DNA of 64,000 nt from an uncultured Bacilli bacterium. Lineage in GTDB: Bacteria > Bacillota_I > Bacilli_A > RF39 > UBA660. Below are positions 4,725 through 56,915 of the stretch, one piece after another. The stretch lies in NCBI GenBank assembly GCA_944371305.1, contig CALVXM010000001.1, positions 39,600-103,599 of the forward strand, read 5' to 3'. Position numbers and translations under genes: made by a program. Position 1 is the stretch's first letter. Every line of letters starts with the position of its first letter. The notes beneath the pieces were generated by a model. The model searched no databases and was not told the DNA's origin. It saw only the letters and a program-made list of their open reading frames with translations.

Positions 4725-5564
4725 ATGGGAAACGATATATATCAAAATGCCATGTGTAAAATTGAACAAGATCAAAAATGTAAACCTTCTTGTGTAACTT
4801 GCGTCGGAGCAACCGGACCTACTGGGCCGACCGGACCTGCTGGTCCAACTACAGTAGCAGTTGGACTTACAACTACTGGTATACCGGGTTCTAACGCTAC
4901 TGTTACCAATGCAGGAACCAATACTAATGCTATTTTCGATTTTGTTATTCCTGCCGGTGCGACCGGTGCAACCGGGCCGACTGGACCTACTGGACCACAA
5001 GGTATTCAAGGTATTCAGGGTATTCAAGGAATAGCGGGAGCAACTGGAACCCCTGGAGCGACTGGAGCGACTGGACCTACTGGGCCTGCCGGAGCATCTG
5101 GTGCAACTGGAGCGACTGGACCTACTGGACCAACTGGACCTAGTATTACACCAACATTTACAATAGGGACTGTTTCAACTGGAGCCCCTGGTTCTACAGC
5201 TACCGCTTCTATAACTGGTACATCTCCTAATTTCTTCTTAAATTTAACTATACCTGCTGGAGCGACTGGACCTACTGGAGTATCTGGCGCTACTGGACCT
5301 ACTGGACCTGCTGGAGCATCTGGCGCTACTGGACCTACCGGGCCTGCTGGAGCATCTGGCGCTACTGGGCCTACCGGACCTGCTGGAGCATCTGGTGCTA
5401 CTGGACCTACTGGACCTGCTGGAGCATCTGGTGCTACTGGACCAACTGGACCTGCTGGAGCATCTGGTGCTACTGGACCTACCGGACCTGCTGGAGCATC
5501 TGGTGCTACTGGACCTACCGGACCTACTGGACCAACTGGACCAACTGGACCTACCGGACCATAA
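4725..5564 (+). CDS. Collagen-like triple-helix repeat protein (Gly-X-Thr repeats); no signal peptide and no C-terminal globular domain
   Basis: Long runs of [16 protein letters not shown]; short non-collagen N-terminus with Cys cluster [10 protein letters not shown]; ends in GPTGPTGP then stop and an intrinsic terminator. Confidence 0.75.
5275..5526 (+). repeat. Tandem 36-bp repeat (about 7 near-identical units, ggagcatctggYgctactggRccWacYggRcctgct) encoding [12 protein letters not shown]
   Basis: Direct reading of sequence; units differ only at synonymous third positions; explains spurious antisense ORFs 4686-5027 and 5244-5579. Confidence 0.85.
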
Positions 5565-7869: not shown

Positions 7870-8575
7870 TTATGAAAGAATCGCCCTTGAACTATAATAG
7901 ATAGAATTACTACCGTTGTTATAGAAAAAAGCAAATATTCCACCGCCAGGTCCATTAGCATAATGACTGCTACGAAGAACCCAAGAAGTATTAGAATTTA
8001 AAGAATATGAATGCTCTTCATACCAACCACCAATTATAGTTCCTAAAATTGTTAAAGTTTCTTTAGTCGCATCACCTAATTTACCTCTTGAATGCGTTAA
8101 ATTATTAGTTGCATCATATGTATAACTATCATAATACTTAGTTACTAAAACTTGCACCTGAAGAAAGGAAATTACCATTGGCATTAACCATACTACCCAT
8201 TCCATATTCTTAATCACGTGATAATCGCCATTAATTTTATAATTATTAGCAATATTTTTTATCTAATTTCTCGCTGGTTTAACAAGGATTTAAAACTACA
8301 CCTTAATCTTGATGATAAATGACATTATGCAAGTAATTCTATTTCCAAAAGTTTCAATATTAGCTAAAAATACTTCGTTGATAACTGGTATTTGTCCTTC
8401 AATTTGCTCATTATAATAAGTTTCTCTAATCGCTTTAGCATATCCCTCAATACTTCTTTTATTCGCACTATCGCGTGACTGTTCAATTACATTTAATTAG
8501 TATCGCAATTAAAGCAATAATAGCTAATATGATCATAACTGCTAATAATTCGACTAACGTAAACCTTCTAACCTC
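7870..8575 (-). pseudogene. Degraded prepilin-type N-terminal domain gene (pilin-like family member A): no start codon, Gly(-1) replaced by Arg, at least two frameshifts
   Basis: RC of 8500-8575 reads RRFTLVELLAVMIILAIIALIAIL then stop; the next frame continues EQSRDSANKRSIEGYAKAIRETYYNEQIEG...; ORF 7870-8217 carries the C-terminal part (..SWVLRSSHYANGPGGGIFAFFY) resembling the C-termini of the other paralogues. Confidence 0.6.
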
Positions 8576-10530
8576 TAACTATCTATCCTTTTACCATCCC
8601 TAATCACATATTCCTCTTTAGTCTTAGCATCAAATACATAAGTTGCCTGATTAAATTCAATATTATCAAAATCTTTTAAAATTTTAATATTATTAACTTT
8701 ATTAAAAACTTTATCTAATTTCTCTTCGATTTGTTCTTTCGTAAATGGTTTAGCAATATAATCGATAAAACCTTGTTCAATATATTTTTCTTTTGCTCCA
8801 GAAATAGCGTCAGCCGTTAAAGCTATTACTGGGGTATTAAAGTCTGGTATCTCTTTTAATTTTGCCATTGCTGTTACTCCACTCATATTTGGCATCATAA
8901 TATCCATTAAAATTAAATCATATTGTTGACCACTATTAATTTTATTTAAACATTCAATACCATCATAACATTCATCAATTTCAAATCCAAAACCAGCTAT
9001 AGCCAGTTTAGCTACTTTGATATTTAATTTATTATCGTCGACAATTAATACTTTTTTATGACCATAATTTTTAATAACATTGTTTTTAACAATTATATTT
9101 TCATCCAATGGTTCTTCTAGCTTACTTATTTTTTGAGGTATTTGAACAATAAATAACGATCCTTGTCCAAATTGACTTTGAACATTTATCTTTCCATTCA
9201 TCATTTCAACTAATGATTTAGTAATAGCTAGACCTAAACCGGTTCCTTCAGTAGTAGTATTTCTTTCTACATCCAATCTTTCAAATTTGTTAAATAATTT
9301 ATTTATTAATTCTGCTTTAATTCCTCTTCCTGTATCTTGAACACTAATTATTAAATTGCATAAATCATTTTTATTAATACATCTTACATTTAAATTAATA
9401 CTTCCTTGTTCAGTATATTTGATAGCATTAGACAATAAATTATTGATTATTTGTTTAATATGAATCTTATCACCAATTAATTCATATGGTACATCAGGAG
9501 CAATACTTATTTTAAATTCGATTGGTTTAGTCCCAATTCTTGTTAATGTTACCTTACATAAATTAGTTATTTCTTTTCTAAAATTATAAGGACTATTTTC
9601 TATTTCTATTTTCTCGGCCTCAATTTTATTGATATCTAATATGTTACCTACTATTTCAAGTAATGTTTGACTAGCATTCTGAATATCGATTGAGTCTTCG
9701 ATTACTTCTTTAGGAACACGATCTTTATAATTAGTTATATCAAAAGAAAGTCCGACGATTGCATTTAAAGGGGTTCTGATTTCATGCGACATACTAGATA
9801 AAAAATCTGATTTAGCTCGATTCGCTTTTTCTGCTTGATTTTTAGCTAAAGTCATTTGAGCTAACATCTTTACGTCCGGATTTTCAATTGTAAAATACAT
9901 TGTTACACATATCAAAGTTTCAACATAAGTCATAAGTAAAATTTGTGGATATTTCATCTGAATAGCCATCGCAATGCCTCCGATAGCTAAAAATATAAAT
10001 ACTGGAATATATTTTCTATTTTTTAATTTTTTTATATTAGTTAACAATAAAATTATTATAATAGCTATTAAAACACCTGATATAAAATACGTAAATAAAA
10101 CACTAACGCCAGCTGTATATCGTATGTTAAAATCATCTTTAATAATTATATCTATTGGTAAAACAAATAAAATCAAAGCCATAATAACATAGTAAATAAA
10201 AAATATAATATATCTTTTCTTATCTACTATTAATTCATTTCTTATCACACTAAATATATAATACGCGAATGTCGAAATCCACAAGATTAAATAAAGCAAA
10301 TAAGATTTATAAATTAGTTCACTAATCAAAGGATAATCTTTATAAATGTATGAAGCATAAGTACACAACATCTCGATAATCAATCCAAATAAATTTGAAA
10401 TTATTAAAACTTTAAATATTTTGGTTTCCTTACTATCTACATGTCCTTTAACAAAAAATAAAATTATAATTAAAATACTAAAAGGTATTGCACATAGAGG
10501 AAAATATATTCCACTTCCCATAATCTTCAC
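8575..10530 (-). CDS. Hybrid sensor histidine kinase (polytopic membrane sensor, HisKA, HATPase_c, C-terminal receiver domain)
   Basis: About 6 N-terminal TM helices; H-box [15 protein letters not shown]; G-boxes DTGRGI / GTGLGLAI; receiver LIVDDNKLN...ILMDIMMP. Confidence 0.85.
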
Positions 10531-10599
10531 TTCCCCGTATCATAATTATAACATTAATAAATTAATATGTAAATTAAAAAAAGAATAACAGCAGTTATT

Positions 10600-12354
10600 C
10601 TAAATTTTCAATACTTTTTGTTTAGCTTCTAGTTTTTCTAAAGCATCTTGTTCTAAGAAAGAATAATCAATTTTATCAGTTCCCGCTTTTCTAGGAAGTT
10701 CTGAAATAAACTCGATATAACTTGGAATTTCATATGATTTTAACTGTTCTTTTGTATTATTAGCTGTTAAAACTGGTTTTAAAAATTGTTCTTTAATACT
10801 ATCCATTACTTCCATCGAAGGTTCAACACCATCTTTTAAAACAATATATGCTTTATTTTTATATAACATTTCCTCATCAGGGACCTTAACAACCGCACAA
10901 TCACTGACATTATCCATATAAGAAATTAGATTTTGAATGCGATCACAATAAACTTTATTTAAGCTGGACATAATATAAAATCTTGATTCTCTACCAGTCA
11001 AAGTAAAATAACCATCTTCATCAATAGAACCTAAAGTACCTGTTTTGAAAAAGATTTTACCACCCCTTTCAAATTTAACTTCAGAAGTAGCTTTTTGATT
11101 TTTAAAATATTCTTTAAAAACATGTTTTCCTGAGACACATAACAATCCTACTTCATTATATTTTTTCTCTTCCATTGTCTCTGGATCAACTATAATAGCA
11201 TCAGTTCCAACCAATACTTTACCGGCAGTTTCTGGTCTAATTTCAATTCCCGTTGGATTGGTTCCACAACTAACTGTCTCCGCATTACCAGAACCATTAC
11301 CCATTTCAACATTTCTAGCGCCATGACTTTCTAAAAATTCTTTTCCTCTTTTAGAATGATTAGGAGTTAAAAAATCCCCACCTGATATAAAAGTTGTTAT
11401 CGATGATAAATCTTGGCTATCTTCGATATTTCTCATGATTAATTCTAATAAAGCTGGGCTTCCAAAAATAATATTCGGATTTTTCTTCAAGTAATAACTG
11501 ATTGTATCTTTAGATATATCAGGAGCTAGGATCGCTGTTTTACTACTTAATAAAGTCATTATTGTCGAAGTTACAAAACCATAAGGATAAGAAAATGGAA
11601 CACATACTAAAGTTTTATCACCATTTAAAGATTTAACATGACTAGAATTTTTTAAATAAGTACCCGCTGCTAAAACATTTTCATTAGTCAAAACAACCGA
11701 TTTGGGTTTACCAGTTGTTCCACTCGTAAACAAAATTAAACAATTATCTTTAGAATTATTATTAGGTAATCCTTTTTTTTGATATTTTGATATACTTTCC
11801 AAACTACTAAAATCAATAAAGGAATCATTATGAGTGATGTGATAATCTTTATCCATCAATAAATTATTTACTTTTGATTTATCTAGGGTAATTATATATC
11901 TTACACAGCTATTATTTTTAATTTCTTCATTTTCTAAATCGGTTTTATCAAAATTTATAAAAACTGAAGATTCAAAAGTATTAAGATAATCACATATTTC
12001 ATCTTTTGAAGCATTAGCATTTAAAAATGTCACAACTGCGCCGATTCGATTACAAGCTAAAAAAGTAGCTACTGCTTGATAATAATTAGGCATACAAACT
12101 GATACAATTTCACCTTTTTTTACGCCCAGTTCTTTCAAAGCTTTAGATATGATAACAGAATCATTAATTAATTGTTCATAAGATGCATTTAAATCAATGC
12201 AGTCAATGGCATCCTTCTTTTTATAAAAAGTATTTATTAATTGAATCGAATTATAAACACTCATATTAGGAATCACCGGATGTCGTGCAGAAAAAGAATA
12301 TCCATTATTTTGCGGTTTATCAATACTAGGATATCCAGTTAATTCTTTTTTCAT
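10600..12354 (-). CDS. AMP-dependent synthetase/ligase (adenylate-forming, ANL superfamily); start taken at MKKELTGY after a GGAGGGG Shine-Dalgarno
   Basis: AMP-binding motif LFTSGTTGKPKSV; about 585 aa; co-directional with mraY and murE. Confidence 0.8.
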   Translation of the reverse strand: MKKELTGYPSIDKPQNNGYSFSARHPVIPNMSVYNSIQLINTFYKKKDAIDCIDLNASYEQLINDSVIISKALKELGVKKGEIVSVCMPNYYQAVATFLACNRIGAVVTFLNANASKDEICDYLNTFESSVFINFDKTDLENEEIKNNSCVRYIITLDKSKVNNLLMDKDYHITHNDSFIDFSSLESISKYQKKGLPNNNSKDNCLILFTSGTTGKPKSVVLTNENVLAAGTYLKNSSHVKSLNGDKTLVCVPFSYPYGFVTSTIMTLLSSKTAILAPDISKDTISYYLKKNPNIIFGSPALLELIMRNIEDSQDLSSITTFISGGDFLTPNHSKRGKEFLESHGARNVEMGNGSGNAETVSCGTNPTGIEIRPETAGKVLVGTDAIIVDPETMEEKKYNEVGLLCVSGKHVFKEYFKNQKATSEVKFERGGKIFFKTGTLGSIDEDGYFTLTGRESRFYIMSSLNKVYCDRIQNLISYMDNVSDCAVVKVPDEEMLYKNKAYIVLKDGVEPSMEVMDSIKEQFLKPVLTANNTKEQLKSYEIPSYIEFISELPRKAGTDKIDYSFLEQDALEKLEAKQKVLKI

Positions 12355-12443
12355 TAAATACCCCTCCATCGGAATGTATGCTACCATAAATAAAAAAAAT
12401 TGTCAAATTATTTAAACAAAAAATTACTAACCAAAGTTAGTAA

Positions 12444-13433
12444 TTATATCCATACCCCCCATAAAATAGCGATAGCAGCTAAAACGATACCAAAAAACCA
12501 AAACATTTTAACGATATCTAATTCATGCCATCCTAATTTTTCAAAATGATGATGTAGTGGTGTCATCAAAAATATTCGCTTACCAGTAAATCTCACCGAC
12601 AATCTTTGTAATACACATACCAATGTTTCAACAACAAATACACCAGCTACAATAATTAAAGTTAATTCGTGGCTTGATACAATTGAAACAGCTGCTAAAG
12701 TCCCCCCTAAAGCAAGTGATCCTGTATCACCCATAAATACTTTAGCAGGATATGTATTAAAGAAACAGAAAGCTATTAAAGCTCCTACTAATATAAAACA
12801 AAATACACCAATATCTTCATTTCCTTGAATACCAAGTGAGGCCCATGCTATCATACCAAAAGCTAAGAAAGCTATTGCCGATAAACCACCAGCTAAACCA
12901 TCTAAACCATCAGTTAAATTAACTGCATTAGTAGAAGCAACCAGCATTAATAATATCAATATCCAATAAAACCACCCAAGATTAATAGTTATGCCTAAAG
13001 TATATATCTCTAAAACTGGATCTCTACCACCCTTCATAAATAAAATGAAGAAAACCACCGCAATAAGTATTTGACCGATTAGTTTTTGAAATTCACTCAA
13101 TCCAATATTATTATGTCGTTTAATAATCAAATAATCATCGATAAATCCAAGTAAGGCATAAGCTAGAAAAACAAAAATAACAGTTCCTAAATTATAAGTC
13201 ATTTCTAACTTATTCATCAACAATAATATCACAACTGATAAAATAGTCGGAATAATAAATATTAATCCACCCATAGTTGGTGTACCATCTTTTTCTTTAT
13301 GTTTTGATAAGAAAACACTCACACTTTGTTTAATATTCATCTTTTTTAGTAATGGTATTAACACAACACCAAAAATAATCGATAAAATAAATCCTATCAT
13401 GAACGCTAATACAGCCTTTGCTAAAATTAACAC
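12444..13433 (-). CDS. mraY: Phospho-N-acetylmuramoyl-pentapeptide transferase
   Basis: 10-TM protein, NAVNLTDGLDGLA signature, HHHFE motif (PLHHHFEKLGW). Confidence 0.9.
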   Translation of the reverse strand: MLILAKAVLAFMIGFILSIIFGVVLIPLLKKMNIKQSVSVFLSKHKEKDGTPTMGGLIFIIPTILSVVILLLMNKLEMTYNLGTVIFVFLAYALLGFIDDYLIIKRHNNIGLSEFQKLIGQILIAVVFFILFMKGGRDPVLEIYTLGITINLGWFYWILILLMLVASTNAVNLTDGLDGLAGGLSAIAFLAFGMIAWASLGIQGNEDIGVFCFILVGALIAFCFFNTYPAKVFMGDTGSLALGGTLAAVSIVSSHELTLIIVAGVFVVETLVCVLQRLSVRFTGKRIFLMTPLHHHFEKLGWHELDIVKMFWFFGIVLAAIAILWGVWI

Positions 13434-13451
13434 ATCATCATCTCCAATTGT

Positions 13452-14774
13452 TTATATATTTTCTAGTACTATTTTTTTATCATCAAAATCATATTTTATA
13501 TTATTAATAATTTGATAAGTCTCATGACCTTTTCCCAACACCAATAGTATATCATTAAAAGATAACATTTGTATACCCTTTATAATCGCTTTTTCTCTAT
13601 TTAAAATAATTTCATAATTAAACTTGTCAAGATTATGTAACATATCACTGATGATATTATTCGGATTTTCACTTCTTGGATTATCATTAGTAAATATAAC
13701 ATAATCGCTATTAGAACAAGCTATATCACTCATAATCGGTCTTTTAAAACTGTCTCGATCTCCCCCACATCCGATAATCGTTATAATATGATTAGGATTT
13801 AATTCCTTAACTGCTTTAATAACATTCAAAACAGCATCTGGAGTATGAGCATAATCAATAATAATTAAATTACTATCTTTTTTTATGATATCCATTCTTC
13901 CAGGTGGACAAACTAATTGTTCTATAACACTAGTATCTAAATTTAATTCACTTAATAAAGCTATTACGACTAATATATTATATAAATTATGTTTCCCAAT
14001 TAATTTAGTTTTATAACTAATATCGTTGACTTTAAAAGAACTTCCTTCCAAATTAATTACATAATCAGTTAGTTTATAATCACCGGATCCGATTCCATAA
14101 GTAATACTATTGTCTTTAATAAAATAATCTTTATATAAATCATCAATGTTGACAAAAGTTTTATCAGTTACATTTTCAAATAATACCTGTTTAGCTTTAA
14201 TATAATTATCGAAAGATTTATGATAATCCAAATGATCTTCAGTTAAATTAGAAAAAATACCATATTTAAATTTTAATTTATCTAGTCTTTTCATATCCAA
14301 GGCATGGCTACTACATTCCATCACCACATATTCGATATTATTTTCTACACATGTTAATAATAATTCATAGATCTCTAGAATATCTGGAGTAGTATTGGAT
14401 AAATCTTTAATTTTTTCATCTAAATAAAAACCAATTGTTCCAATATAAGCACATTTAATTCCCAGTTTATTTAAAGCCTGATAAATTAAAAAACAAGTTG
14501 TCGTTTTACCATTAGTACCAGTCATTCCAATCAATTTTAAATTTTTAATTTGATCATAATAATTATCATATAAATAATTAACTAAATAATTATGTGTATC
14601 TTCAGTCACAATTGTTTCAACATCATAATTACCTTCTTCAACTATCACTTTACTAGCGCCATTTTTAATAGCATCTAAAATGTAATCATGACCATCATGT
14701 GTTTTTTTTAATGCCACAAATATATCACCTTTCACAACTTTTCGTGAATCGTCTTTTATATTCAAATTAATCAC
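13452..14774 (-). CDS. murE: Mur ligase, MurE type (UDP-MurNAc-L-Ala-D-Glu--diamino acid ligase), canonical DNPR motif
   Basis: P-loop GMTGTNGKTTT; MurE-specific IFTNDNPRSENP near C-terminus; upstream of mraY. Confidence 0.85.
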   Translation of the reverse strand: MINLNIKDDSRKVVKGDIFVALKKTHDGHDYILDAIKNGASKVIVEEGNYDVETIVTEDTHNYLVNYLYDNYYDQIKNLKLIGMTGTNGKTTTCFLIYQALNKLGIKCAYIGTIGFYLDEKIKDLSNTTPDILEIYELLLTCVENNIEYVVMECSSHALDMKRLDKLKFKYGIFSNLTEDHLDYHKSFDNYIKAKQVLFENVTDKTFVNIDDLYKDYFIKDNSITYGIGSGDYKLTDYVINLEGSSFKVNDISYKTKLIGKHNLYNILVVIALLSELNLDTSVIEQLVCPPGRMDIIKKDSNLIIIDYAHTPDAVLNVIKAVKELNPNHIITIIGCGGDRDSFKRPIMSDIACSNSDYVIFTNDNPRSENPNNIISDMLHNLDKFNYEIILNREKAIIKGIQMLSFNDILLVLGKGHETYQIINNIKYDFDDKKIVLENI

Positions 14775-14831
14775 CCATTATATTTTATTCAAATGGTTAA
14801 AAAATGTGGTAAAATATAGTTGGTGAAGATA

Positions 14832-16586
14832 ATGAAAAAAATTATTTTGTTATTAATTTTAATTTTTCCTTTTAAAATTACTGCTTTAGAACAAGCTGTT
14901 GTCGATATTAATGAATTAAATATTTATGAACTACAAGAATATGTCGACAAAGGATATTTAACTTATGAAAAAATCGTTAAACTATATTTAGATCGAATCA
15001 ACGAATATAATGAACAATATAACGCTTTAATCACAGTTAACGAAAATGCTTTAGAAGAGGCTAAAAAGTTAGATTTAGAATATCAAGAGAAAGGTAGACG
15101 TAGTCTAATTCATGGGCTACCAGTTATTGTAAAAGATAACATCGATGTTAAGGGATTACCTACTACTAATGGCGCTAAAGGATTGCTAGATGCCTATCCC
15201 AATGAAAATGCTGATGTCGTTCAAAAATTAATCGATAACGGCGCTATTATTATTGCCAAAGCTAATATGGATGAATTTGCTTTCAACGCTACTTATTCTC
15301 ATAGTAGTTTTGGCGATGTTTATAACGCTTATAATACTGCTTATTCATCTTATGGGTCTTCTGGGGGAAGTGCTGTTAGTGTAGCAAGTAATTTAGCCGT
15401 TTTTGCTTTAGGAACCGATACAGGAAGTTCAGTTAGAGTCCCAAGTAGTGCTAATGGTGTTGTTGGAATTAGACCTAGTTTTGATATTATGAGTGGTAAA
15501 GGTGTAATTAAATTTGAAGAAACAAGAGATGTTGTCGGTGTTATAACCAAATATGTTAGCGATAATGCCATTGTTTTAAACATTATCGATGAAGTCGATA
15601 TTAATTATGAACAATATTTAAATAAGCCACTAGATGGAATCAAGATAGCAGTCATCAAAGGATTTATGAATCCTAATACCAACAGTACTAGTGTGGCTTA
15701 TGGAAAAACTGACCAATTTATCTATGACATGATGAATGATGCTATTGAAGATTTAGAAAATTTGGGTGTTGAAATTATTTATCTAGATAATTTTTATTTA
15801 AATTATCAATTTGATGCCACAACAATGTGTTACAATTTTAATGAACATATAAAAAATACTTCTAGTAAAATTAGAAGTTTAGATGATTTAATTAAAAATG
15901 GTGGTTATACGCAATATATCGAAGGTTATAATGGTTATTATTGTAATCATGATTACAAATTAACAAACACTTATAAAAACTATATCAATAATCGTAATAA
16001 TAATATCAAAACTGCCAATAATAGATTTGAAAGTAATGATATTGATGCGATCATCTACCCTACTTTAAAAACAGAATTATATACTATCGAAGAAGCCAAA
16101 TATAAAAAAATTCACACTCCAAGTTCAGACACAGCACCTTTAATTGGATTCCCTGCTATGAGTATTTTAATTGGATACTATAATAATTTACCTTATGGTA
16201 TGGAAATAATGGCTCAAGCTAATAATGAAAAAGTTATTTATCAAATTGCTAGTGCTTATGAAAAATTGCACAATTATTATAAAACTCCTAGTATCGCTCC
16301 TAGTCTTTATGAAATACCTGATAATACTAATAAATTATTAGAATATTACGATAAATATAAAGACAATAAAAAATATGAAGAAATCAATAGTAAAGTTAAA
16401 AACTATTTAATTAATTTTGATGGTAATAGTGATAATATTAATAATTTAATTAACAAATATGAGGAAGAATTAGTAACCCCTGATATCAACAATGAAGATA
16501 ACATCAAAAACCAAAATTATAACTATATTATTATTTTACTAGGAGTATTGGTAGCTGTTATTATTATTAAGAAGGTGAGAAAATGA
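14832..16586 (+). CDS. Amidase-signature (AS) family amidase with N-terminal signal peptide and C-terminal TM anchor (predicted extracytoplasmic); start at ATG 14832 (ORF track uses upstream TTG)
   Basis: Signal-like N-terminus MKKIILLLILIFPFKITA; AS core GSSGGSAVSVA and GTDTGSSVRVP; C-terminal hydrophobic YIIILLGVLVAVIIIKKVRK. Confidence 0.75.
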   Translation: MKKIILLLILIFPFKITALEQAVVDINELNIYELQEYVDKGYLTYEKIVKLYLDRINEYNEQYNALITVNENALEEAKKLDLEYQEKGRRSLIHGLPVIVKDNIDVKGLPTTNGAKGLLDAYPNENADVVQKLIDNGAIIIAKANMDEFAFNATYSHSSFGDVYNAYNTAYSSYGSSGGSAVSVASNLAVFALGTDTGSSVRVPSSANGVVGIRPSFDIMSGKGVIKFEETRDVVGVITKYVSDNAIVLNIIDEVDINYEQYLNKPLDGIKIAVIKGFMNPNTNSTSVAYGKTDQFIYDMMNDAIEDLENLGVEIIYLDNFYLNYQFDATTMCYNFNEHIKNTSSKIRSLDDLIKNGGYTQYIEGYNGYYCNHDYKLTNTYKNYINNRNNNIKTANNRFESNDIDAIIYPTLKTELYTIEEAKYKKIHTPSSDTAPLIGFPAMSILIGYYNNLPYGMEIMAQANNEKVIYQIASAYEKLHNYYKTPSIAPSLYEIPDNTNKLLEYYDKYKDNKKYEEINSKVKNYLINFDGNSDNINNLINKYEEELVTPDINNEDNIKNQNYNYIIILLGVLVAVIIIKKVRK

Positions 16587-17995
16587 AATTAAATCAATTA
16601 ATCGATTGTCCTTATGATACTCTAATAACCGGCATTAAAACTAACTCGGTTAATATTCAAAAAGGAGATTTATTTATTTGTATCGATAGTAAGACAATGG
16701 ATCGTCATCTATTTATCGATGACGCTATTAAAAAAGGGGCAGCAGCCATTATCGTCAAAAATGATGTCAAAGAAAAATCTGTACCAATTATTAAAGTAGA
16801 TGACCCTAATGAAGTATTTGTCGATATTATCAATAAATTTTATAATTACCCTACTGATAAATTACAAATGATAGGAATAACTGGTACCGATGGTAAAACC
16901 ACAGTAGCTACAATTATTTATCAGTTGATAGATAATTGTGCCTATATTGGTACTAATGGTATTTTTTATAATAATCACAAAGAAAAGACAAACAATACTA
17001 CCCCCGCTTTAGATAAAACTTATCCCCTTTTCGTTGATATGATTAATAATAATATTAAAACCGTCAGTATGGAAGTATCTAGTGAAGCTATTTTATATGA
17101 ACGGGTTAGAGGCATAAAATTTAATTGTGCAATTTTGACTAATATTACAAAAGAACATTTAAATACTCATAAAACTTTAGAAAACTATATTAATTGCAAA
17201 TGTCAATTGTTTGAAAATACCATTGGACCTTGTATTTTAAATAAAGATGATGAACATTACTTAGAAGTAGCTAAACATTGTAATAAAACAGTATATACCT
17301 ATGGCAGTAAAGAAGATAACGATTTATATTTTAAAGATGTAATTTTGAAACATAATCAAACTATTTTTAAACTAGTTTATCAAAATAAAGAATATGAAAT
17401 TATTAGTCCTTTAATTGCTTTATTTAATGTCTATAATTTATGTGCTAGTATTTTAGCGTTAGTATCATTGGGTTACGATATTGATAAGATTATTAAAAAT
17501 ATTCCTAAATTAAATATTAGTGGACGACTTGAAAATATTGATTTAGGCCAAGATTTTAAAGTTATTGTCGATTATGCCCATACCCCTAATGGAATAGCTA
17601 AATTATTAGAATTTATCAATAGTTTAGACTTTAATCGTTTGATTGTCGTCTTTTCTGAACCCGGAGAAAGGGATAAATCAAAACGTGCTATTAAAGGTTA
17701 TAATGTCATTACTAATTGTGATTATGCAATTATAACTAGTCAAGATCCTAGAAGTGAAAATCCAATGGATATAGCTAATGATCTAATTAGTGATGTTAAA
17801 AATTATCAAAATTATGAAATTATTTTAAACCGTAGTGACGCTATTAAAAAAGCTATCGATATGGCTAAATCAAATGATATTGTTTTAATTCTTGGTAAAG
17901 GAAGTGAAAACTATCAAATTTTAAGTGATAAAATTATTGAATTTTGTGATATTGATGAAGTTAAAAAACATTTAAAAAATCTACTTTCAAAGTAG
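16583..17995 (+). CDS. Second Mur ligase, MurE-like paralogue with variant QDPR motif (candidate for adding a non-canonical residue to the peptide stem)
   Basis: P-loop GITGTDGKTTVA; C-terminal IITSQDPRSENP in place of DNPR; 470 aa; translationally coupled (4-nt overlap) to the amidase. Confidence 0.8.
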   Translation: MKLNQLIDCPYDTLITGIKTNSVNIQKGDLFICIDSKTMDRHLFIDDAIKKGAAAIIVKNDVKEKSVPIIKVDDPNEVFVDIINKFYNYPTDKLQMIGITGTDGKTTVATIIYQLIDNCAYIGTNGIFYNNHKEKTNNTTPALDKTYPLFVDMINNNIKTVSMEVSSEAILYERVRGIKFNCAILTNITKEHLNTHKTLENYINCKCQLFENTIGPCILNKDDEHYLEVAKHCNKTVYTYGSKEDNDLYFKDVILKHNQTIFKLVYQNKEYEIISPLIALFNVYNLCASILALVSLGYDIDKIIKNIPKLNISGRLENIDLGQDFKVIVDYAHTPNGIAKLLEFINSLDFNRLIVVFSEPGERDKSKRAIKGYNVITNCDYAIITSQDPRSENPMDIANDLISDVKNYQNYEIILNRSDAIKKAIDMAKSNDIVLILGKGSENYQILSDKIIEFCDIDEVKKHLKNLLSK

Positions 17996-18005
17996 ATTTT
18001 TTATT
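17975..18005. terminator. Bidirectional intrinsic terminator between murE-like (+) and Doc/Fic-like (-) genes
   Basis: A-run, hairpin ctactttcaaagtag, T-run; overlaps the TAG stop of the murE-like gene. Confidence 0.65.
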
Positions 18006-18011
18006 ATATAT

Positions 18012-18815
18012 TTATTTTTTTATATAAGTCTTTTCTTCATCTTTTTTTAATTCTTCTGAAATATCCAAATCATAAATAGAATCACATATTTTATAGTAAT
18101 AAAATTGATTTAAAGAAGTATAATCTCTTTTTTTCATAGCTTTCATTAAAGCATCTTTATATTCAGCTCGCTCTTTTGTTTTAACATAAACAGGCGGTAA
18201 ATTATATTGTTTAAACATCAAATTTAATAAAGCTCTAAATGTTCTTTTATTTCCATCATTAAACGGTTGTACTCTAATTAATTCGGTAGTAACATAAATA
18301 CAAGCATTAATATAATCAAATATCGAATAAGGATCATTAAAATCAACTTTAGGTAAATCTTTACCAATGAATGATTGAAAATAACTTCTCGCTTCTTCAT
18401 AATTAGGAACTTCGATAATTTCATTTTTTAAAACAGCAGAACCATCTCTTAACTTTCCCCCAAACTCTGGATAAGGACATTCAGAAAATAATAACATATG
18501 AATTTTCATTGCTTCGATGAATATATCAAATTTTTGTTTACTAAAGTCATAACTTTTGATATATTCATAAGCTTTAGCTAGGCCTTTTCTCTCCTCTTCT
18601 AAAAGAGTTTGATCGATTCGACTTTCATTATATAAATAATATCTTTTAAAATTATCGTAAATTATTTTAAAATGTGGTTTTTGATTAGATTTATAATACA
18701 TCGTAATAATTTGTTCTGGAATTAAACTATCTTTTTTATACAAACGATGTTCTTCTTTTCTTTTTCGATAACCTTCAAATACTAAAACAATAAAATCTCT
18801 TAATTCATTTTCCAT
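18012..18815 (-). CDS. Fic/Doc-family protein with non-canonical motif QPFNDGNKR (Doc-like HxFxD(A/G)NKR signature but with Gln replacing the catalytic His)
   Basis: Sequence IRVQPFNDGNKRTFRALLNLMF at residues about 180-200 of 267; no adjacent Phd-like antitoxin ORF. Confidence 0.55.
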   Translation of the reverse strand: MENELRDFIVLVFEGYRKRKEEHRLYKKDSLIPEQIITMYYKSNQKPHFKIIYDNFKRYYLYNESRIDQTLLEEERKGLAKAYEYIKSYDFSKQKFDIFIEAMKIHMLLFSECPYPEFGGKLRDGSAVLKNEIIEVPNYEEARSYFQSFIGKDLPKVDFNDPYSIFDYINACIYVTTELIRVQPFNDGNKRTFRALLNLMFKQYNLPPVYVKTKERAEYKDALMKAMKKRDYTSLNQFYYYKICDSIYDLDISEELKKDEEKTYIKK

Positions 18816-18850
18816 ATAATCCCCTCCTTAGTAGTTTCATATTATATTTC

Positions 18851-18885
18851 AAATTAAAACGTTTGTCAAATTGACAAACGTATCA
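18851..18885 (-). terminator. Intrinsic terminator downstream of the membrane-Mur ligase gene
   Basis: Hairpin aacgtttgtcaaattgacaaacgt with flanking T-rich run on the minus strand. Confidence 0.6.
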
Positions 18886-20478
18886 TTATTTTTCATTAAA
18901 CACATCTGGTAAATCGTTTTCTAATAAAATATAAGTTTCTTGATTATTAAAATATGTTTGAGCTATTTTGATAGCTTCTTTAACATCATTTAAAACCAGC
19001 AATTTCTTATTATCAAAGCCAGCTTCGATAATTCCTTTTTGAATTGGTTTAGTTTGTTCAGATCCTACTAAAATGGCTAAATCAACAGAAGTAGCAATAA
19101 ATTTACCAAAATTATAATTAACTTCGTATTGCTTATCACCCATTTCAATCATCCCCGGTGTGATAACAATTTTTTTACCTGGCATCAATTTCAAAACATC
19201 TAAAGCCATTTTAGAACCGATTGGATTTGAATTATAAGCATCATCAATATAAGTTAGATGACCATATTTTTTAATTTGCAGACGATGTTCAATCGGTTTA
19301 ATTTGATTAACTCCTCTTTGCAATTCATTGATATTTAATCCTAATTCATACCCAACGGCAATACCAGCCAAAATATTATAAACATTCGCATCCCCTAATA
19401 ATTTGGTATTAAATTCATAAGATTTTTTATCACCTTTAAAGTGAACTTTAAAATTCATGCCACTACTAGAATATTTAATGTCACTAGCGTAGACATCAGC
19501 TTTATCGCTTAATCCATACCAAACTATTTTTATTTTATTTTTTAAATTGTATTTAACTTGTAATTCATCATCAATATTTAAAAAACCAACTCCATTTGGT
19601 GGTAAACTTTCGATAAGTTCAAATTTAGCTTGTGTCGTATTGGCAATAGATCCGAATGTATCTAAATGAGCTGTCCCTATTTTAGTTAAAACACCATATT
19701 TAGGTTTTACTATACTAGCTCGTGATTTAATATCCCCTTTTCTAAATGCCCCTAATTCAGCGATAAAATAATCGTTATATTTATCAATATATTCGTTAAT
19801 AGTTCTAATTAAACCATAATTGGTATTAAAATTTTGCGGAGTTGGAAAGGCGATGTATTTTATATTTAAGATATCATTAATAATATTTTTAGTACTAGTT
19901 TTACCATAACTACCTGTAACGCCAATAACTTCCATGTTATTTAAAGTTTTTAACTTTTTCATAGCCTTACTTTTATAATATAAATATACTAATTTTTCAA
20001 CTGGTTTATTGATAATATTAACTAGGTAAACAATATGATAGTTAAAATAAATTAAACTACCTAAAATAAAATAATATAAAAATAAATTAGACTCATTGAA
20101 TGTTAAAAATATCAAGATAAGAGGAATACTATATAAAATTAAAGTAGTGATACACATTCTTTTAATTCTACTAGTAAAAGCAAGTGGTTTTTTTACCTGT
20201 TCATTTCGATATTTATTTAATAATACATATGATAAAAGGAAATAATATACTGTTATAATGACACTAAGTAAATTATTATCGATAAAAATACCAAGAATAA
20301 CAATGAATAAATATAGATAATCTAACCAAGTAAAAATAAAAGAAGCATTATTATTGATCCATTTTAAATAACGATTACCATCATTGTACCAATTTTGTTG
20401 AAGCATATGAAAAGCTTTTTTTAAATCAATGATAGTATAAACTAACATACTTAGTAAAGCCAAAAGAAATAAATTCAT
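18886..20478 (-). CDS. Mur ligase family protein (MurF-like C-terminal DDAYNSNP motif) with an unusual N-terminal polytopic membrane domain of about 170 aa
   Basis: About 5 predicted TM helices in residues 1-170; P-loop GVTGSYGKTSTKNII; DDAYNSNPIGS motif; 530 aa. Confidence 0.7.
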   Translation of the reverse strand: MNLFLLALLSMLVYTIIDLKKAFHMLQQNWYNDGNRYLKWINNNASFIFTWLDYLYLFIVILGIFIDNNLLSVIITVYYFLLSYVLLNKYRNEQVKKPLAFTSRIKRMCITTLILYSIPLILIFLTFNESNLFLYYFILGSLIYFNYHIVYLVNIINKPVEKLVYLYYKSKAMKKLKTLNNMEVIGVTGSYGKTSTKNIINDILNIKYIAFPTPQNFNTNYGLIRTINEYIDKYNDYFIAELGAFRKGDIKSRASIVKPKYGVLTKIGTAHLDTFGSIANTTQAKFELIESLPPNGVGFLNIDDELQVKYNLKNKIKIVWYGLSDKADVYASDIKYSSSGMNFKVHFKGDKKSYEFNTKLLGDANVYNILAGIAVGYELGLNINELQRGVNQIKPIEHRLQIKKYGHLTYIDDAYNSNPIGSKMALDVLKLMPGKKIVITPGMIEMGDKQYEVNYNFGKFIATSVDLAILVGSEQTKPIQKGIIEAGFDNKKLLVLNDVKEAIKIAQTYFNNQETYILLENDLPDVFNEK

Positions 20479-20523: not shown

Positions 20524-21021
20524 TTAAAACATATCGATGATTTTATCCAATTTATCAATAACTGGATAACCTTTATTTTTATTTAAATCTCTAGAAAATT
20601 GAACCCCAATTCCACCTTCATTTTTCCATTCATCTAAATTACCTGAATAATCATCAATTAAAATAGCATCCTTACTTAAACAAATTTTAGTTTTAGATAT
20701 TTCTCTTGGAACAGGAATAATCGTAATATCCTTAAAATATCTTCTAATATAATTTATCTTAGCAATTGCTTCATCTAATGAGTTAACATGCGTTAAAATA
20801 GCAACATTAAATTTATTAGAAGCAAATATTTTTTTGATACAATTAAAACTATCATTAATAATTGGTGTTAAAGTTAATAATTGTTTCCAATTTAAATTAG
20901 AATAAAATTCTTTCATCTTATCAGGATCTTTACGATCAACTTCTAATCTATCCAACATATCATAAGTAACACTGATAGTATCCATAACCACACCATCAAA
21001 ATCTATATATAAATTTTTCAT
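20524..21021 (-). CDS. HAD-family 5'(3')-deoxyribonucleotidase-like protein
   Basis: Motif I IDFDGVVMDT at N-terminus, 165 aa, NT5C-like size. Confidence 0.55.
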   Translation of the reverse strand: MKNLYIDFDGVVMDTISVTYDMLDRLEVDRKDPDKMKEFYSNLNWKQLLTLTPIINDSFNCIKKIFASNKFNVAILTHVNSLDEAIAKINYIRRYFKDITIIPVPREISKTKICLSKDAILIDDYSGNLDEWKNEGGIGVQFSRDLNKNKGYPVIDKLDKIIDMF

Positions 21022-30604: not shown

Positions 30605-32062
30605 TTATAAGAACATCATCGCTAACGTTAAAATAAGAATATTGACAACTGCAATCGTAACGACAATCTTTAAAGCAAATTTTACCCAAGTTGCATATTC
30701 TACTTTAGCTACTGCAAGTCCACCCATAATAGCGCCACAAGTTGGTGTAATTAAGTTAACTAAACCGTTAGCAGCAACTATAGTCATAACAGTTCCTTCA
30801 ACACTATATCCTAATTGATAAGCAACTGGTCCTACGATAGGTGCTGATAAAGTAGCCAAACCAGAACTAGATGGAACTAAAATAGATAATAGAACATGAA
30901 TAACATAGTTAAATGGTGCGAATATGATAACTGGAACATTTTTAAGCATCTCAGCAGCATTATAAATTATGTAATTATCTAAATATGTGCTTTGCATTAA
31001 AACTGAAGCTCCACGAGCAATAGCGATAATTAAGATTACTCCAACCATATCGTCAGCGCCATCGATAAATGTATCAACAAATTTTTTCTCTCCAGTTCTA
31101 TTAACAAAACCAATAATAACTGACATAATTAAAAACCACAAAGCTGCTTCATAGAAATACCACTGTCCTAAAGGCATTCCTGTTAACCAACCAGTAAATT
31201 TAGGAAATATATCAATACCAAATTCTTCCCAAGGAATAAATCCAACAATCATCACAACAAATGTCAAAGCAAATAAACATAAAGTAATTTTTTGTTTTTT
31301 GGATAATTTAACATTATCTAATTCAGTATTAACATGACTTCCGTATTCTTCTTCCGCATTTTTTCTTTCTCTTAACGATAAGAAAGTTGAACCTTTTTTC
31401 TTAATAACTCTTTTAGCATAAGCCATTACAAATAAAATAGAAATCAATAAAGTTGTCAGCCATAAAGCTACACCTATACCAATTATAAGTCCTTGATTAA
31501 CAGCAATTCCTTCAGGCAAGGCGCTAACTGCTGCTCCTACCGCAAATGGATTAATAGTTGATCCTAAAACACCTGAACCTGCTCCTAATAAAACAACTGC
31601 TGATGCTACCAAGGTATCCATACCAGCCATTACCATCGTTGCAGATAATAAAGCATAAAAACCAACAGTTTCCTCAAGCATACCATAAGTAGTACCACCA
31701 ACTGAGAAAATAAACATTAAAATTGGTATTAATATTAACTCTTTACCTTTTAGTTTTTTAACCAAAACTTTAATACCAGTTTCCAAAGCTTCAGTTCTTG
31801 CAACAATAGCTAAAAACCCGCCTAGAATAAGAACGAAAATACAAACATCAATCGCATTTTCAAATCCTAAAATAGGAGACAAAAGTACATCTGATAATGT
31901 CGCTCCTACAACACCACTACCATTGACAATTTCTTCAACGCCTTCAGCGTTAGTAACAAATTCTGCTTTAGGTAGAAAATGTGAAACAATTCCTAAAGCA
32001 AATATTAATATGAAAATTATCGAAAAAGCGGTTAGAAAACCTTTTCTTTTTTTCTTTGCCAT
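30605..32062 (-). CDS. YfcC-family membrane carrier (putative arginine/ornithine antiporter, ArcD-like by context)
   Basis: 485 aa, about 11-12 TM helices, basic N-terminus MAKKKRKGFLTAFSIIF typical of YfcC family; last gene of the arc operon. Confidence 0.65.
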   Translation of the reverse strand: MAKKKRKGFLTAFSIIFILIFALGIVSHFLPKAEFVTNAEGVEEIVNGSGVVGATLSDVLLSPILGFENAIDVCIFVLILGGFLAIVARTEALETGIKVLVKKLKGKELILIPILMFIFSVGGTTYGMLEETVGFYALLSATMVMAGMDTLVASAVVLLGAGSGVLGSTINPFAVGAAVSALPEGIAVNQGLIIGIGVALWLTTLLISILFVMAYAKRVIKKKGSTFLSLRERKNAEEEYGSHVNTELDNVKLSKKQKITLCLFALTFVVMIVGFIPWEEFGIDIFPKFTGWLTGMPLGQWYFYEAALWFLIMSVIIGFVNRTGEKKFVDTFIDGADDMVGVILIIAIARGASVLMQSTYLDNYIIYNAAEMLKNVPVIIFAPFNYVIHVLLSILVPSSSGLATLSAPIVGPVAYQLGYSVEGTVMTIVAANGLVNLITPTCGAIMGGLAVAKVEYATWVKFALKIVVTIAVVNILILTLAMMFL

Positions 32063-32063
32063 A

Positions 32064-33005
32064 TTATTCTCCCTTTCTAACGATTACTGTGCCAGTTTTA
32101 CCTAACAAAGCATCCTTGATTTTACCTAATGAGGTAATAATTGCTTGTCCATCTTTTTTATGTGATACATAATCTATACATGCTTCTATCTTAGGAAGCA
32201 TACTGCCTGCTTTAAATTCATCATTCTTCATATATTCTTTTGCTTGTTTAACTGTTAAAAAGTCTAATTTTTGTTCGTTTTCCTTATTAAAATTAATCGC
32301 TACTTTTTCGACAGCTGTCAATATTAAGAAAATATCAGCGTTCAGATCAATCGCTAGTTTCGCGCTAGTTTTATCTTTATCAATAACCGCATCAACTCCA
32401 ACTAGGCTATTACGTTTTTTAATAACTGGTATGCCTCCACCACCTGCTGCTATAATTACATTATGTTTATTGCTTAAGTCCCTAATAACCTTACCCTCAA
32501 CTACCTTTAATGGATTAGGACTAGCAATAACTCTACGGTAACCTCTTCCAGCATCTTCTTTAAATACAAAACCTTTTTCTTTAGTTAATTCATCTGCTTC
32601 TTTTTTTGTATAAAAGTTGCCAATTGGTTTAGTTGGATTAGAAAAAGCTTCATCTTTACTATCAACTAAAACTTGAGTTATAACAGTAATACAATTTTTA
32701 CGCATATTTCGTCTAAATAACTCTTTTTGAATTGATTGCTGCAAATGATATCCAATATATCCTTGACTCATGGCGCCACATTCAGCAAATGGCATATCAG
32801 GAGTATCGATTTCTTCATGTGCTACTTCCATTGCTAAGTTGATCATACCCACTTGAGGTCCATTACCATGAGTTACAACAATATCGTAACCATCTTCGAT
32901 AATATCAACAATATTTTTAGCGGTACTCTTGATTAAATTTAATTGTTCACTAGGGGTATTACCTAAAGCATTACCCCCTAGTGCAATGACGATTTTTCTT
33001 TTCAT
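32064..33005 (-). CDS. arcC: Carbamate kinase
   Basis: N-terminal [11 protein letters not shown], amino-acid kinase fold, 313 aa. Confidence 0.9.
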
Positions 33006-33991
33006 TTATATAAAGTCGCGAACATAATAGCTTTAATGGTATGTAATCTATTTTCAGCTTCCTCAAAAACTCTTGACTGTTTTGATTCAAAAACTTCATT
33101 AGTTACTTCCATTTCTGTCAAACCAAATTTTTCATGAATTTCTTGACCAATCGTTGTTTTTAAATCATGGAATGATGGTAAGCAGTGTAGAAATATTGCA
33201 TTTGGATTAGCAATACTCATTAGTTCTTTGTTTACTTGGTAAGGTTTTAATAGATTAATTCTTTCCTCCCAAATACTTGCATCTTCACCCATTGAAACCC
33301 ACACATCAGTATATAATACATCAGCATTTTTAACAGCTTCTTTAGGATCTTCAATAAATTCAATTGTCGAATTATATTTTTTAGCAAACTCTTCACATTG
33401 TTTTACTAATGGTTCTTCAGGTACTAATTGTTTTGGACTACAACAAACAAAGTTAATTCCCAATTTAGAACAAATAACCATTAAAGAATTAGCGACATTA
33501 TTTCTGCCATCACCTAAGAAAACTAATTTTTTACCTCTAATTTCACCAAATTCTTCTTTAACAGTCATAATATCTGCTAACATTTGAGTTGGATGAAATT
33601 CATTAGTTAAACCATTCCAAACTGGAACTTTAGAATACTTGGCTAATTCTTCGACGATTTCCTGATCAAAACCACGATATTCAATGCCATCATACATTCT
33701 CGATAAAACACGAGCCGTATCTTCGATACTTTCTTTTTTGCCCATCTGTGAACCAGTTGGTCCTAAGTAAGTAGCTCCCATACCTAAATCATAAGCTCCA
33801 ACTTCAAAAGCACATCTTGTTCTAGTTGAATCCTTTTCAAAAAGTAAAACAACATTTTTACCTCTTAAATAAGCATGTGATTTTTTATTTTTTTTCTTCT
33901 CTTTGAAAAGAATAGCAAGTTTAATTAAATAAGTAATTTCTTCTGGTGTGTAATCGATTAGTTTTAAAAAATCACGACCATAAAAATTCAT
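33002..33991 (-). CDS. arcB: Ornithine carbamoyltransferase (catabolic)
   Basis: STRTR carbamoyl-phosphate motif, HPTQ, HCLP motifs; 329 aa. Confidence 0.9.
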
Positions 33992-33992
33992 T

Positions 33993-36634: not shown

Positions 36635-36637
36635 TTA

Positions 36638-50602: not shown

Positions 50603-50677
50603 TGGAGCAAGTGAGCGGAATCGAACCGCCGTCCCAGCCTTGGCAAGGCCGTATACTAACCGCTGTACTACACCTGC
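50603..50677 (-). tRNA. tRNA-Gly (anticodon GCC), CCA encoded
   Basis: RC folds as cloverleaf: acceptor gcaggtg/cacttgc, anticodon stem cggcc/ggctg, loop ttGCCaa, T-loop ttcgatt, 3' tCCA; 75 nt. Confidence 0.9.
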
Positions 50678-56689: not shown

Positions 56690-56739
56690 ATCATCACCTC
56701 AATTATATAACATATTATAACATATTTTAGAATAAAAAA

Positions 56740-56915
56740 AAAGTCCAAGAATGCGGGCCCTTAACGATAAAACCTAGTCTCTACCAGGTGGGCATCACAT
56801 CATCAATTTTAGGATTCTCAAAATTAATTGAGCCTTCAACACCATCGATGAATTAGATTCCCAATATTCGTTAATCAGTCGGTTTTTCTAAATGAGCTTA
56901 TCGCTATCCTTAGAC
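56740..56915 (-). ncRNA. Candidate small/structured RNA or tkt 5' leader (about 175 nt, GC-rich island, extended -10 TGgTATAAT at 56922-56930, 3' T9)
   Basis: Local GC far above flanks (gggcccgc, cccacctgg); no ORF; family not identified; no clean terminator hairpin found. Confidence 0.2.

Follow-up and report, generated by a model that had tools for sequence, protein, structure and literature searches.

The subject of this work is a peptidoglycan-precursor locus in a 64,000-nucleotide stretch of DNA from an uncultured bacterium of the order RF39 (contig CALVXM010000001.1, positions 39,600 to 103,599; hereafter the window). The locus carries a Mur ligase joined to a membrane domain (TM-MurF), two MurE paralogues (MurE1 and MurE2), mraY and the gene of an amidase-signature enzyme, whose positions are collected in Table 1. 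A sequence-only reading of the same DNA had named these genes, with the DNPR and QDPR motifs of the two MurE proteins and an AMP-ligase gene beside mraY, and each was confirmed where that reading had placed it. It was also right that this is no textbook division and cell wall (dcw) cluster: the canonical order, a contiguous murE-murF-mraY-murD-ftsW-murG-murC with fts genes, is not found in the window, the murE1-mraY adjacency being the only part of it present, and the neighbours of the locus include a hybrid histidine kinase, relA, dtd and priA.

The GC content of the 64-kb window is about 26%. An identical locus is present on 21 independent metagenome contigs and is therefore no assembly artefact. 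The nearest named relatives of a marker protein of the window are Acholeplasma sp. CAG:878, Candidatus Faecisoma merdavium and Candidatus Coprosoma, which GTDB places in family CAG-822 of the order RF39 (PMC8035907). RF39 is an order of uncultured gut Bacilli with strongly reduced genomes and many auxotrophies (PMC6784871). Its members have been predicted to be spore-formers with few penicillin-binding proteins, whose wall pathway is of the diaminopimelate type and lacks some steps (PMC10868615). The loci of relatives compared below (numbered with an L) comprise 10 kb on either side of each match and are not complete genomes. Scores against hidden Markov models (HMMs), together with sequence and fold matches, place all three ligases in cell-wall Mur families; membership of the FPGS, cyanophycin synthetase, CapB and MurT families, some of which the sequence-only reading had proposed to check, is ruled out by the HMM scores.

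Table 1. Positions of the genes, domains and other features in the window, with the basis of each assignment
Feature	Position	Strand	Basis or remark
AMP-binding, acyl-CoA-ligase-like enzyme	10600..12387	-	PF00501, 198 bits
mraY (phospho-MurNAc-pentapeptide transferase)	12444..13433	-	TIGR00445, 293 bits against cutoff 192
MurE1, diaminopimelate-type	13452..14774	-	NF001126, 480 bits against cutoff 373; motif TNDNPRSENP
Short putative divergent control region, murE1 / amidase-murE2 operon	14775..14831	.	+ strand: extended -10-like TGTGGTAAAAT; - strand: TATAAT
Amidase-signature enzyme, 584 residues from ATG 14832 (longest open reading frame from 14820)	14832..16586	+	PF01425, 274 bits
MurE2, 470 residues	16583..17995	+	NF001126, 443 bits; motif TSQDPRSENP
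Fic-like protein	18012..18815	-	PF02661, 28.6 bits
Hairpin straight after the TM-murF stop	18841..18881	-	Overlaps a perfect TTGACA-17-TATAAT promoter facing the Fic gene (consensus match only)
TM-MurF, 530-residue Mur ligase	18886..20478	-	TIGR01143, Foldseek, motifs, ddl linkage in relatives
Membrane domain of TM-MurF, residues 1-178	19945..20478	-	Hydropathy, helix boundaries, AlphaFold model
HAD-like protein, 165 residues, DFDG motif	20524..21021	-	Upstream neighbour of TM-murF, conserved in the window's clade
DcuC-type carrier	30605-32062	-	PF03606
arcC (carbamate kinase)	32064-33005	-	PF00696
arcB (ornithine carbamoyltransferase)	33002-33991	-	PF00185/PF02729
arcA	33993-35234	-	PF02274; arginine deiminase pathway, outside the wall locus
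Amino-acid ABC transporter	35248-37354		Follows the arc genes
tRNA-Gly(GCC)	50603-50677	-	tRNA match
6S RNA	56738-56919	-	Rfam, 67 bits

The membrane Mur ligase and its relation to MurF

Residues ~180-510 of TM-MurF form the region that matches MurF. The best NCBIfam match is the murF model TIGR01143, at 218.8 bits against a cutoff of 288.6, and it covers model positions 69-392 only; the score stays below the cutoff because the N-terminal domain is absent. The P-loop domain PF08245 (145 bits) and PF02875 (37 bits) are both recognised, PF01225, the N-terminal uridine diphosphate (UDP)-binding domain, gives no match, and alignments to PDB entries begin at MurF residue ~100-120. TM-MurF thus departs from a MurF in two respects, its score below the curated cutoff and the lack of the N-terminal alpha/beta UDP-binding domain. 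In every other comparison MurF comes first. All of the top seven PDB sequence matches are MurF, and the AlphaFold model (mean predicted local distance difference test, pLDDT, 86.9) retrieves MurF as its ten best Foldseek matches, followed by MurE, MurC and MurT. Both the P-loop GSYGKTST and the MurF-type DDAYNSNP, which aligns with DDTYNANP of 4QDI, are invariant among 70 relatives. The MurT model reaches 37 bits only, and MurT, CapB, FPGS and cyanophycin synthetase all score far below MurF.

The family comprises more than 5,800 proteins, with full-length members of ~520-548 residues at 95-100% coverage, and was matched in at least 553 stretches of species-representative genomes. Where enough downstream sequence is available (74 species loci), the next gene after TM-murF is ddl in 61, at a gap of ~12 bp, and an operon with the gene of the D-Ala-D-Ala ligase is strong functional evidence that TM-MurF is a MurF. 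No other MurF-like gene was found in ~2.2 Mb of related DNA around the loci, a search that took in no whole genome. Judged from sequence, the membrane ligase is the lineage's own MurF and not an extra paralogue. The expectation of extra Mur-ligase paralogues in the sequence-only reading thus stands for the second MurE, which is real and conserved, and falls for the membrane ligase, whose best sequence and fold matches are MurF and whose gene is coupled to ddl in most related species.

Several further observations concern the surroundings of TM-murF. In 61 of 75 species a gene for a 246-residue alpha/beta hydrolase overlaps the TM-murF start, giving a hydrolase-murF-ddl operon (L019-L088; e.g. 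L076:9256-9996); the best match of this hydrolase is an EstV-type lipase, below cutoff, and the gene is absent from the window's clade. At L043:9238-16549 the whole hydrolase-TM-murF-ddl operon is duplicated in tandem, with TM-MurF copies so diverged that their best matches in other species are ~69% and ~60% identical, an arrangement that recalls alternative D-Ala-D-X pathways. In the window, the hairpin behind the TM-murF stop sets the gene apart from those downstream. On the other side, the gene of the HAD-like protein, which has no match in Pfam or NCBIfam, adjoins TM-murF in 14 related loci at 71-91% identity.

The N-terminal polytopic membrane domain of about 170 residues that the sequence-only reading had described is borne out, residues 1 to ~155 being made up of hydrophobic helices. 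Residues 1-178 match no Pfam family. A search with the membrane domain through 1.84 billion representative proteins gave 376 matches; each full-length one is 518-537 residues long, and the shorter ones are gene fragments that continue into the P-loop. The domain is thus found only in the TM-MurF architecture, and our literature searches turned up no earlier account of a MurF built into the membrane. Hydropathy, helix boundaries and the positive-inside rule predict five transmembrane helices, so that the domain begins on the outer side of the membrane and ends on the inner. Three motifs of the domain are invariant, HMLQQNWYNDGNRYLKW, EQVKKPLxFTxRIKR and NIINKPVEK. In the predicted topology all three face the cytoplasm beside the ligase body, and no invariant residue lies outside these loops. 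Since a mere anchor needs no invariant polar or basic loops, we infer that the cytoplasmic loops replace the lost UDP-binding domain. That they bind the UDP of the classical substrate, perhaps with hand-over to MraY, seems to us moderately probable.

The same features might be explained if TM-MurF acted on a lipid-linked substrate, in which case MraY would transfer the MurNAc-tripeptide first and D-Ala-D-Ala would be added afterwards, changing the order of the pathway. Three observations would fit this: the UDP-binding N-terminal domain is absent, the polytopic domain has invariant basic or polar residues in loops predicted to be cytoplasmic (R36, K96, R104, R107), and MurT/GatD is among the fold matches. 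To our knowledge MurT is the only Mur-family ligase that acts on lipid II, and it likewise has no N-terminal domain. MurT, however, does so without any membrane domain, the tight coupling to ddl suits the classical reaction equally well, and the conserved loops could as well bind UDP, a point on which structural relatives give no guidance. We regard a lipid-linked substrate as unlikely.

Two MurE enzymes, an arginase and an exported amidase

MurE1 is an ordinary diaminopimelate-type MurE. It has the three Mur domains, scores above the cutoff and carries DNPR, GCGGDRD and GKGHE, including the counterpart of E. coli Arg389; in E. coli MurE, diaminopimelate is contacted by DNPR, by the GGDRD arginine and by GKGHE (PMC3829189). 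Its start is probably the GTG at 14774 or the TTG at 14765, and a 421-residue gene call is too short, since the N-terminal DSRKVVKGDIF aligns with MurE2 and is hence coding. The gene lies 18 bp upstream of mraY and is its neighbour wherever a related locus contains both genes. At least two related species also have a second MraY paralogue, ~58% identical to that of the window, ~9 kb upstream of TM-murF (L013:541-1416; L023:43-~1000).

MurE2 is likewise a complete MurE, with matches to PF01225, PF08245 and PF02875 and 409 bits on TIGR01085 (cutoff 257). It differs from MurE1 in its specificity motifs, having QDPR for DNPR, SEPGERD for GCGGDRD and GKGSE for GKGHE. It therefore lacks the DNPR of diaminopimelate-type enzymes, whose Asn and Arg hold the distal carboxylate while Asp contacts the amine. 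It is not of the lysine type either, since it scores 305 bits on the lysine-type model NF010628 (cutoff 536) and keeps the Arg. The P-loop GITGTDGKTT is retained, and the Lys in NCKCQLF, which aligns with AKQVLF of MurE1, is what we take to be the MurE carbamylated-lysine site. The substitutions are shared by the family: among the 116 closest full-length cluster representatives, 60 have QDPR with SEPGERD and 54 have EDPR with GQAGERD, so that [Q/E]DPR occurs in 114 of 116, with EPGE or QAGE in place of GxGG and GKG(S/N)E in place of GKGHE.

At 36% identity, MurE1 and MurE2 differ from each other about as much as each does from the MurE of Thermotoga or S. aureus, and in a neighbour-joining tree they form separate clades with parallel divergence. 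To one sister species both are 83% identical, and to a more distant one 61% and 58%, respectively. This parallel divergence indicates that both have been inherited vertically in small genomes. From these comparisons MurE2 emerges as a real, ancient second MurE conserved across RF39, and the QDPR ligase of the sequence-only reading is confirmed as a conserved enzyme with an altered specificity motif. Its best PDB match is the Thermotoga maritima MurE 4BUB (232 bits, 31% identity); the Thermotoga enzyme, with DDPR, installs L- and D-lysine in vivo and accepts diaminopimelate in vitro. Literature searches for ornithine-specific MurE motifs, MurE paralogues or an arginase- or amidase-linked MurE2 family found nothing directly relevant.

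The gene neighbourhood of the EDPR form was surveyed in 80 metagenome loci around relatives 50-79% identical to the query. A divergent arginase-family gene lies 12-219 bp upstream of murE2 in 45 of the 60 loci with at least 1 kb of upstream sequence (47 of 60 if two over-extended open reading frame starts are allowed). Its product scores 186-197 bits on rocF, against 70-104 for agmatinase or formimidoylglutamase, and has the metal-binding motifs. Among the 73 loci with sequence on the other side, some have murG, murB or ftsQ (8 each) or a VanZ gene (21) downstream of murE2, and in some loci MurE1 with MraY follows. A small open reading frame between murE2 and murE1 in L090, L091 and L093 is not conserved, belongs to no family and was set aside.

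The QDPR form has another partner. An arginase gene is never adjacent to this subtype, which is the one carried by the window, where no arginase is present; instead, the amidase gene always lies directly in front of QDPR murE2 and in the same orientation (window, L009-L016, L089, L092, L174), and the pair is kept down to 57% amidase identity. The amidase stop overlaps the MurE2 start (ATGA at 16583-16586) behind a ribosome-binding-site-like AAGGTG. The protein has the motifs KDN, GSSGGS and TDTGSS of the Ser-cisSer-Lys signature; all three exact strings recur in 59 of 118 relatives, and KDN in 117. A signal-like segment at the N-terminus (residues 1-28) and, at the other end, a membrane anchor with KKVRK behind it predict an extracytoplasmic enzyme, as the sequence-only reading had proposed, and this topology is conserved in the family (signal in 114 and anchor in 112 of the 118). 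The best PDB match reaches 150 bits, and the enzyme has no characterised close relative. In L092:6014-8173 and L174:5722-7881 a 719-residue Acyl_transf_3 protein, an OatA-like O-acetyltransferase, is encoded divergently from the amidase-murE2 operon.

For MurE2, the most economical reading of these gene neighbourhoods would be that the enzyme adds not diaminopimelate but another diamino acid, ornithine being the candidate with most support.

Close relatives of the window differ precisely in this part of the locus. Within its genus-level group the HAD-like protein (85-91%), MurE1 (79-83%) and MraY (89-94%) are much alike, and the stretch between the HAD-like gene and murE1 exists in two forms. 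Type W (window, L009-L016) has TM-MurF (76-81% identical), Fic, MurE2 and the amidase. In type X (L028, L031, L032 and Ca. Faecisoma L024), TM-MurF is 60-62% identical to that of the window and 81-94% within the type, and its gene is followed directly by that of a third MurE-like ligase, MurEx; MurE2 and the amidase are absent. According to the tree MurEx derives from the MurE1 lineage; it has N-D-H-I-F for DNPR and passes the MurE model. MurEx genes lie between TM-murF and murE1 at L015:12437-13801, L028:11584-12969, L031:2145-3530 and L032:7398-8774, with DDPH or N-D-H-I-F in place of DNPR and the motifs CCRANRD and GHGHEEV. The MurF allele therefore switches together with the second ligase among relatives whose MurE1 and MraY are ~81% and ~91% identical. 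Such co-variation is what one would foresee for a MurF that has to take up whatever the second ligase makes, and it fits a branch-adding role too.

A branch-adding role would mean that the second ligase, MurE2 or MurEx, attaches a residue to a free carboxyl, either the alpha-carboxyl of D-Glu, as in B-type peptidoglycan, or the distal carboxyl of diaminopimelate, with MurE1 providing the constant core. MurE1 and MraY are indeed constant while the second ligase varies (QDPR, EDPR, DDPH, DHIF), and it varies with the MurF allele, as expected if MurF accepts the decorated substrate. Also in favour of this role, we know of no genes identified for such carboxyl additions. However, the architecture of MurE2 and MurEx is that of a complete MurE, both pass the MurE model, branch addition is not known from any characterised MurE-family enzyme, and in some relatives the EDPR form occupies the site of the principal murE, followed by murG, murB or ftsQ (~8 loci each). 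Moreover, MurE1 is clearly of the diaminopimelate type, at odds with a B-type wall; as far as we know, B-type walls have no diaminopimelate at position 3. The B-type peptidoglycan raised as an example by the sequence-only reading is thus not specifically supported, MurE1 having the full diaminopimelate-binding set and MurE2 being a complete MurE with x-D-P-R, and a branch-adding second ligase seems to us quite unlikely. The partners of MurE2, arginase and exported amidase, point instead to the supply or processing of an amino acid.

It could also be that the wall is ordinary, of plain A1-gamma type, with MurE2 a redundant or differently regulated diaminopimelate ligase and its association with arginase or amidase a coincidence. 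The diaminopimelate-ligase model accepts MurE1 as well as MurE2, the motif still has its Arg, and a published survey predicts a diaminopimelate-type pathway for RF39 (PMC10868615). Yet two proteins only 36% identical have been kept in parallel across RF39 despite highly reduced genomes, and their pocket residues differ consistently. In loci so diverged, an arginase neighbour in 45 out of 60 cannot be put down to chance, and the partner switches with the first motif residue, E going with arginase and Q with amidase. An ordinary wall is improbable in the light of these patterns.

Proposed pathway and the genes around it

The substrate assignments that follow are read from family membership, domain replacement, topology, synteny and co-variation. 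We propose an RF39-type precursor locus that combines a membrane MurF, a diaminopimelate-adding MurE1, a MurE2 with another diamino acid and an amidase partner, a combination whose chances we place somewhat above even. In this model TM-MurF would add D-Ala-D-Ala, its three cytoplasmic loops most likely binding the nucleotide-sugar end of the substrate, and the membrane domain would hold the enzyme at the membrane beside MraY. MurE1 would add meso-diaminopimelate and feed MraY, while MurE2 would most likely put a different diamino acid at position 3, with L-ornithine favoured and L-lysine possible. The cell would in this way make two kinds of stem peptide, for instance for the vegetative wall and the spore cortex, or according to amino-acid availability. 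The exported amidase would act outside the membrane, its substrate being either the residue added by MurE2 or the external material from which that residue comes. Possible reasons for two MurE enzymes, which do not exclude each other, are a developmental split, an auxotroph's need to take the diamino acid at hand, and a mixed wall.

Several points weigh against the proposed pathway. In the window's own clade ddl is not beside TM-murF, nor is it found anywhere within the 64 kb. A second, canonical MurF may lie elsewhere in the genome, beyond the ~2.2 Mb of related DNA covered. The case for ornithine is drawn from the neighbourhood of the EDPR genes and is weaker for the QDPR form. MurE2 may still use diaminopimelate or a relative of it, because QDPR keeps the Arg to which the distal carboxylate normally binds and because the Thermotoga enzyme takes diaminopimelate in vitro, and in S. 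aureus MurE the motif alone does not fix specificity (PMC3829189). Lastly, there is no obvious reason why an exported amidase should be coupled to a cytoplasmic ligase.

The elements can also be joined into a swappable stem-peptide cassette with a re-ordered pathway, in which TM-MurF would complete the stem peptide once MraY has attached it to the lipid carrier, the second MurE would add a variable and perhaps masked residue (in the QDPR form e.g. citrulline made by the arginine deiminase pathway) and the exported amidase would unmask it to ornithine outside, switching cross-linking on in that place only; we consider this highly improbable. Hardly credible is an additional non-MurF ligase for a bridge or polymer, with a normal MurF elsewhere in the genome, for although the score lies below the curated MurF cutoff (219 against 289 bits) and no ddl stands beside the gene in the window, the missing N-terminal domain explains the low score, the motifs of MurF are kept, 61 of 74 loci have ddl coupled to the gene, and MurT, CapB, FPGS and cyanophycin synthetase score much lower.

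A membrane-integral MurF, if true, would mean that an essential enzyme and drug target exists in a previously unrecognised form, and would bear on the hand-over from soluble to membrane steps in wall synthesis. RF39 is a widespread, never-cultured gut order whose wall pathway published surveys treat as the ordinary diaminopimelate type. Genome-based predictions of wall type miss the difference between MurE paralogues because curated models label all of them diaminopimelate ligase. The second MurE tied to arginase leads to the testable prediction of ornithine or lysine in the wall. NOD1 recognises diaminopimelate-type fragments, and ornithine or lysine in the wall would affect host sensing as well as culture requirements. 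Finally, the exchange of cassettes among close relatives suggests diversifying pressure on the chemistry of the stem peptide.

The remaining genes of the locus are bystanders. The sequence-only reading had counted the AMP-ligase, as co-transcribed with mraY, in the wall block, and its gene does lie on the same strand as mraY, with a gap of 56-89 bp and a promoter-like site of its own at 12406..12378. In eight sister-species loci, however, no AMP-ligase follows mraY, similarity to the window stopping at the mraY stop codon, and the protein has generic ANL/acyl-CoA-ligase matches only, far below cutoffs, with no DltA-like wall-specific match. These two results rule it out as part of the wall module. 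It appears paired with the hybrid histidine kinase (window 8575-12387, minus strand; also together in L064 and L076), which has HisKA, HATPase and receiver domains and several predicted N-terminal membrane helices, and the pair looks like an insertion after mraY in the window's species. Because RF39 has no fatty-acid synthesis (PMC6784871), activation of external fatty acids by the AMP-ligase is plausible. The Fic-like protein, in which Gln replaces the catalytic His (VQPFNDGNKRTFR), is probably inactive for that reason; its gene has its own perfect consensus promoter, TTGACA-17-TATAAT, and is absent from cassette type X. Both the AMP-ligase and Fic are outside the conserved wall module.

Elsewhere in the window, the genes at 30605-35234 (minus strand) encode a complete arginine deiminase pathway, a likely route to energy and ornithine in a reduced genome and a possible internal source of ornithine for MurE2. 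A collagen-like protein with GPT/GAT triplet repeats, of BclA/exosporium type (4725-5564, plus strand; local GC 0.36 against 0.26), hints at spore formation. No riboswitch or other RNA was found near the mur genes, the only Rfam or tRNA matches of the window being 6S RNA and one tRNA.

Comparison with known systems

MurE1 resembles E. coli MurE (1E8C) in DNPR, the GGDRD arginine and GKGHE; it also adjoins mraY, and apart from an N-terminal domain ~25 residues shorter it is ordinary. MurE2 shares with the Thermotoga maritima enzyme (4BUB) the x-D-P-R pattern, the acidic second residue and the retained Arg. In contrast to that enzyme, its motif begins with Q or E and not with D, a DNPR paralogue is present beside it, and it has arginase or amidase partners.

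Two position-3 specificities in one cell, as proposed for RF39, have a precedent in Lysinibacillus (Bacillus) sphaericus, for which Tipper and colleagues in the 1970s reportedly described separate lysine-adding (vegetative) and diaminopimelate-adding (sporulation) activities. That split depends on developmental stage, whereas the RF39 pair is known from its genes. RF39 is itself predicted to form spores (PMC10868615), and the window has the exosporium-type collagen-like protein. Borrelia burgdorferi, with ornithine at position 3 of its wall, offers a parallel for the link between arginine-degrading enzymes and a wall amino acid: ArcA and ArgF have been proposed as its source of ornithine (PMC8092773), and the window has arcA, arcB and arcC. 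In RF39, by comparison, the link is a physical arginase-murE2 gene pair, and the ornithine wall is predicted.

The exported amidase has the Ser-cisSer-Lys signature (KDN, GSSGGS) in common with GatA and with the periplasmic peptide amidase Pam (1M21/5AC3), the latter of which indicates that members of this family can act outside the cytoplasm. It differs in having both a signal peptide and a C-terminal anchor and in its translational coupling to a MurE paralogue.

For TM-MurF two comparisons matter. MurT/GatD, the lipid II isoglutamine synthase, likewise contains a Mur-family ligase that has no N-terminal domain, and its lipid-linked substrate is modified at the membrane, but MurT is soluble, with a Cys-rich insert and a glutaminase partner, whereas TM-MurF is predicted to be an integral membrane protein and is MurF-like. 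With the known MurF enzymes (A. baumannii 4QF5/4QDI, E. coli 1GG4, T. maritima 3ZL8) it shares the central ATP-binding and C-terminal domains, the P-loop and DDxYN(A/S)NP, as well as the fold (Foldseek E 2.5e-24, TM-score ~0.7 on the target), and the coupling to ddl that is typical of MurF in Bacilli recurs in most TM-MurF relatives, but not in the window or its closest relatives. What sets TM-MurF apart from them is that it lacks the N-terminal UDP-binding domain and has in its place a 178-residue membrane domain with five predicted helices.

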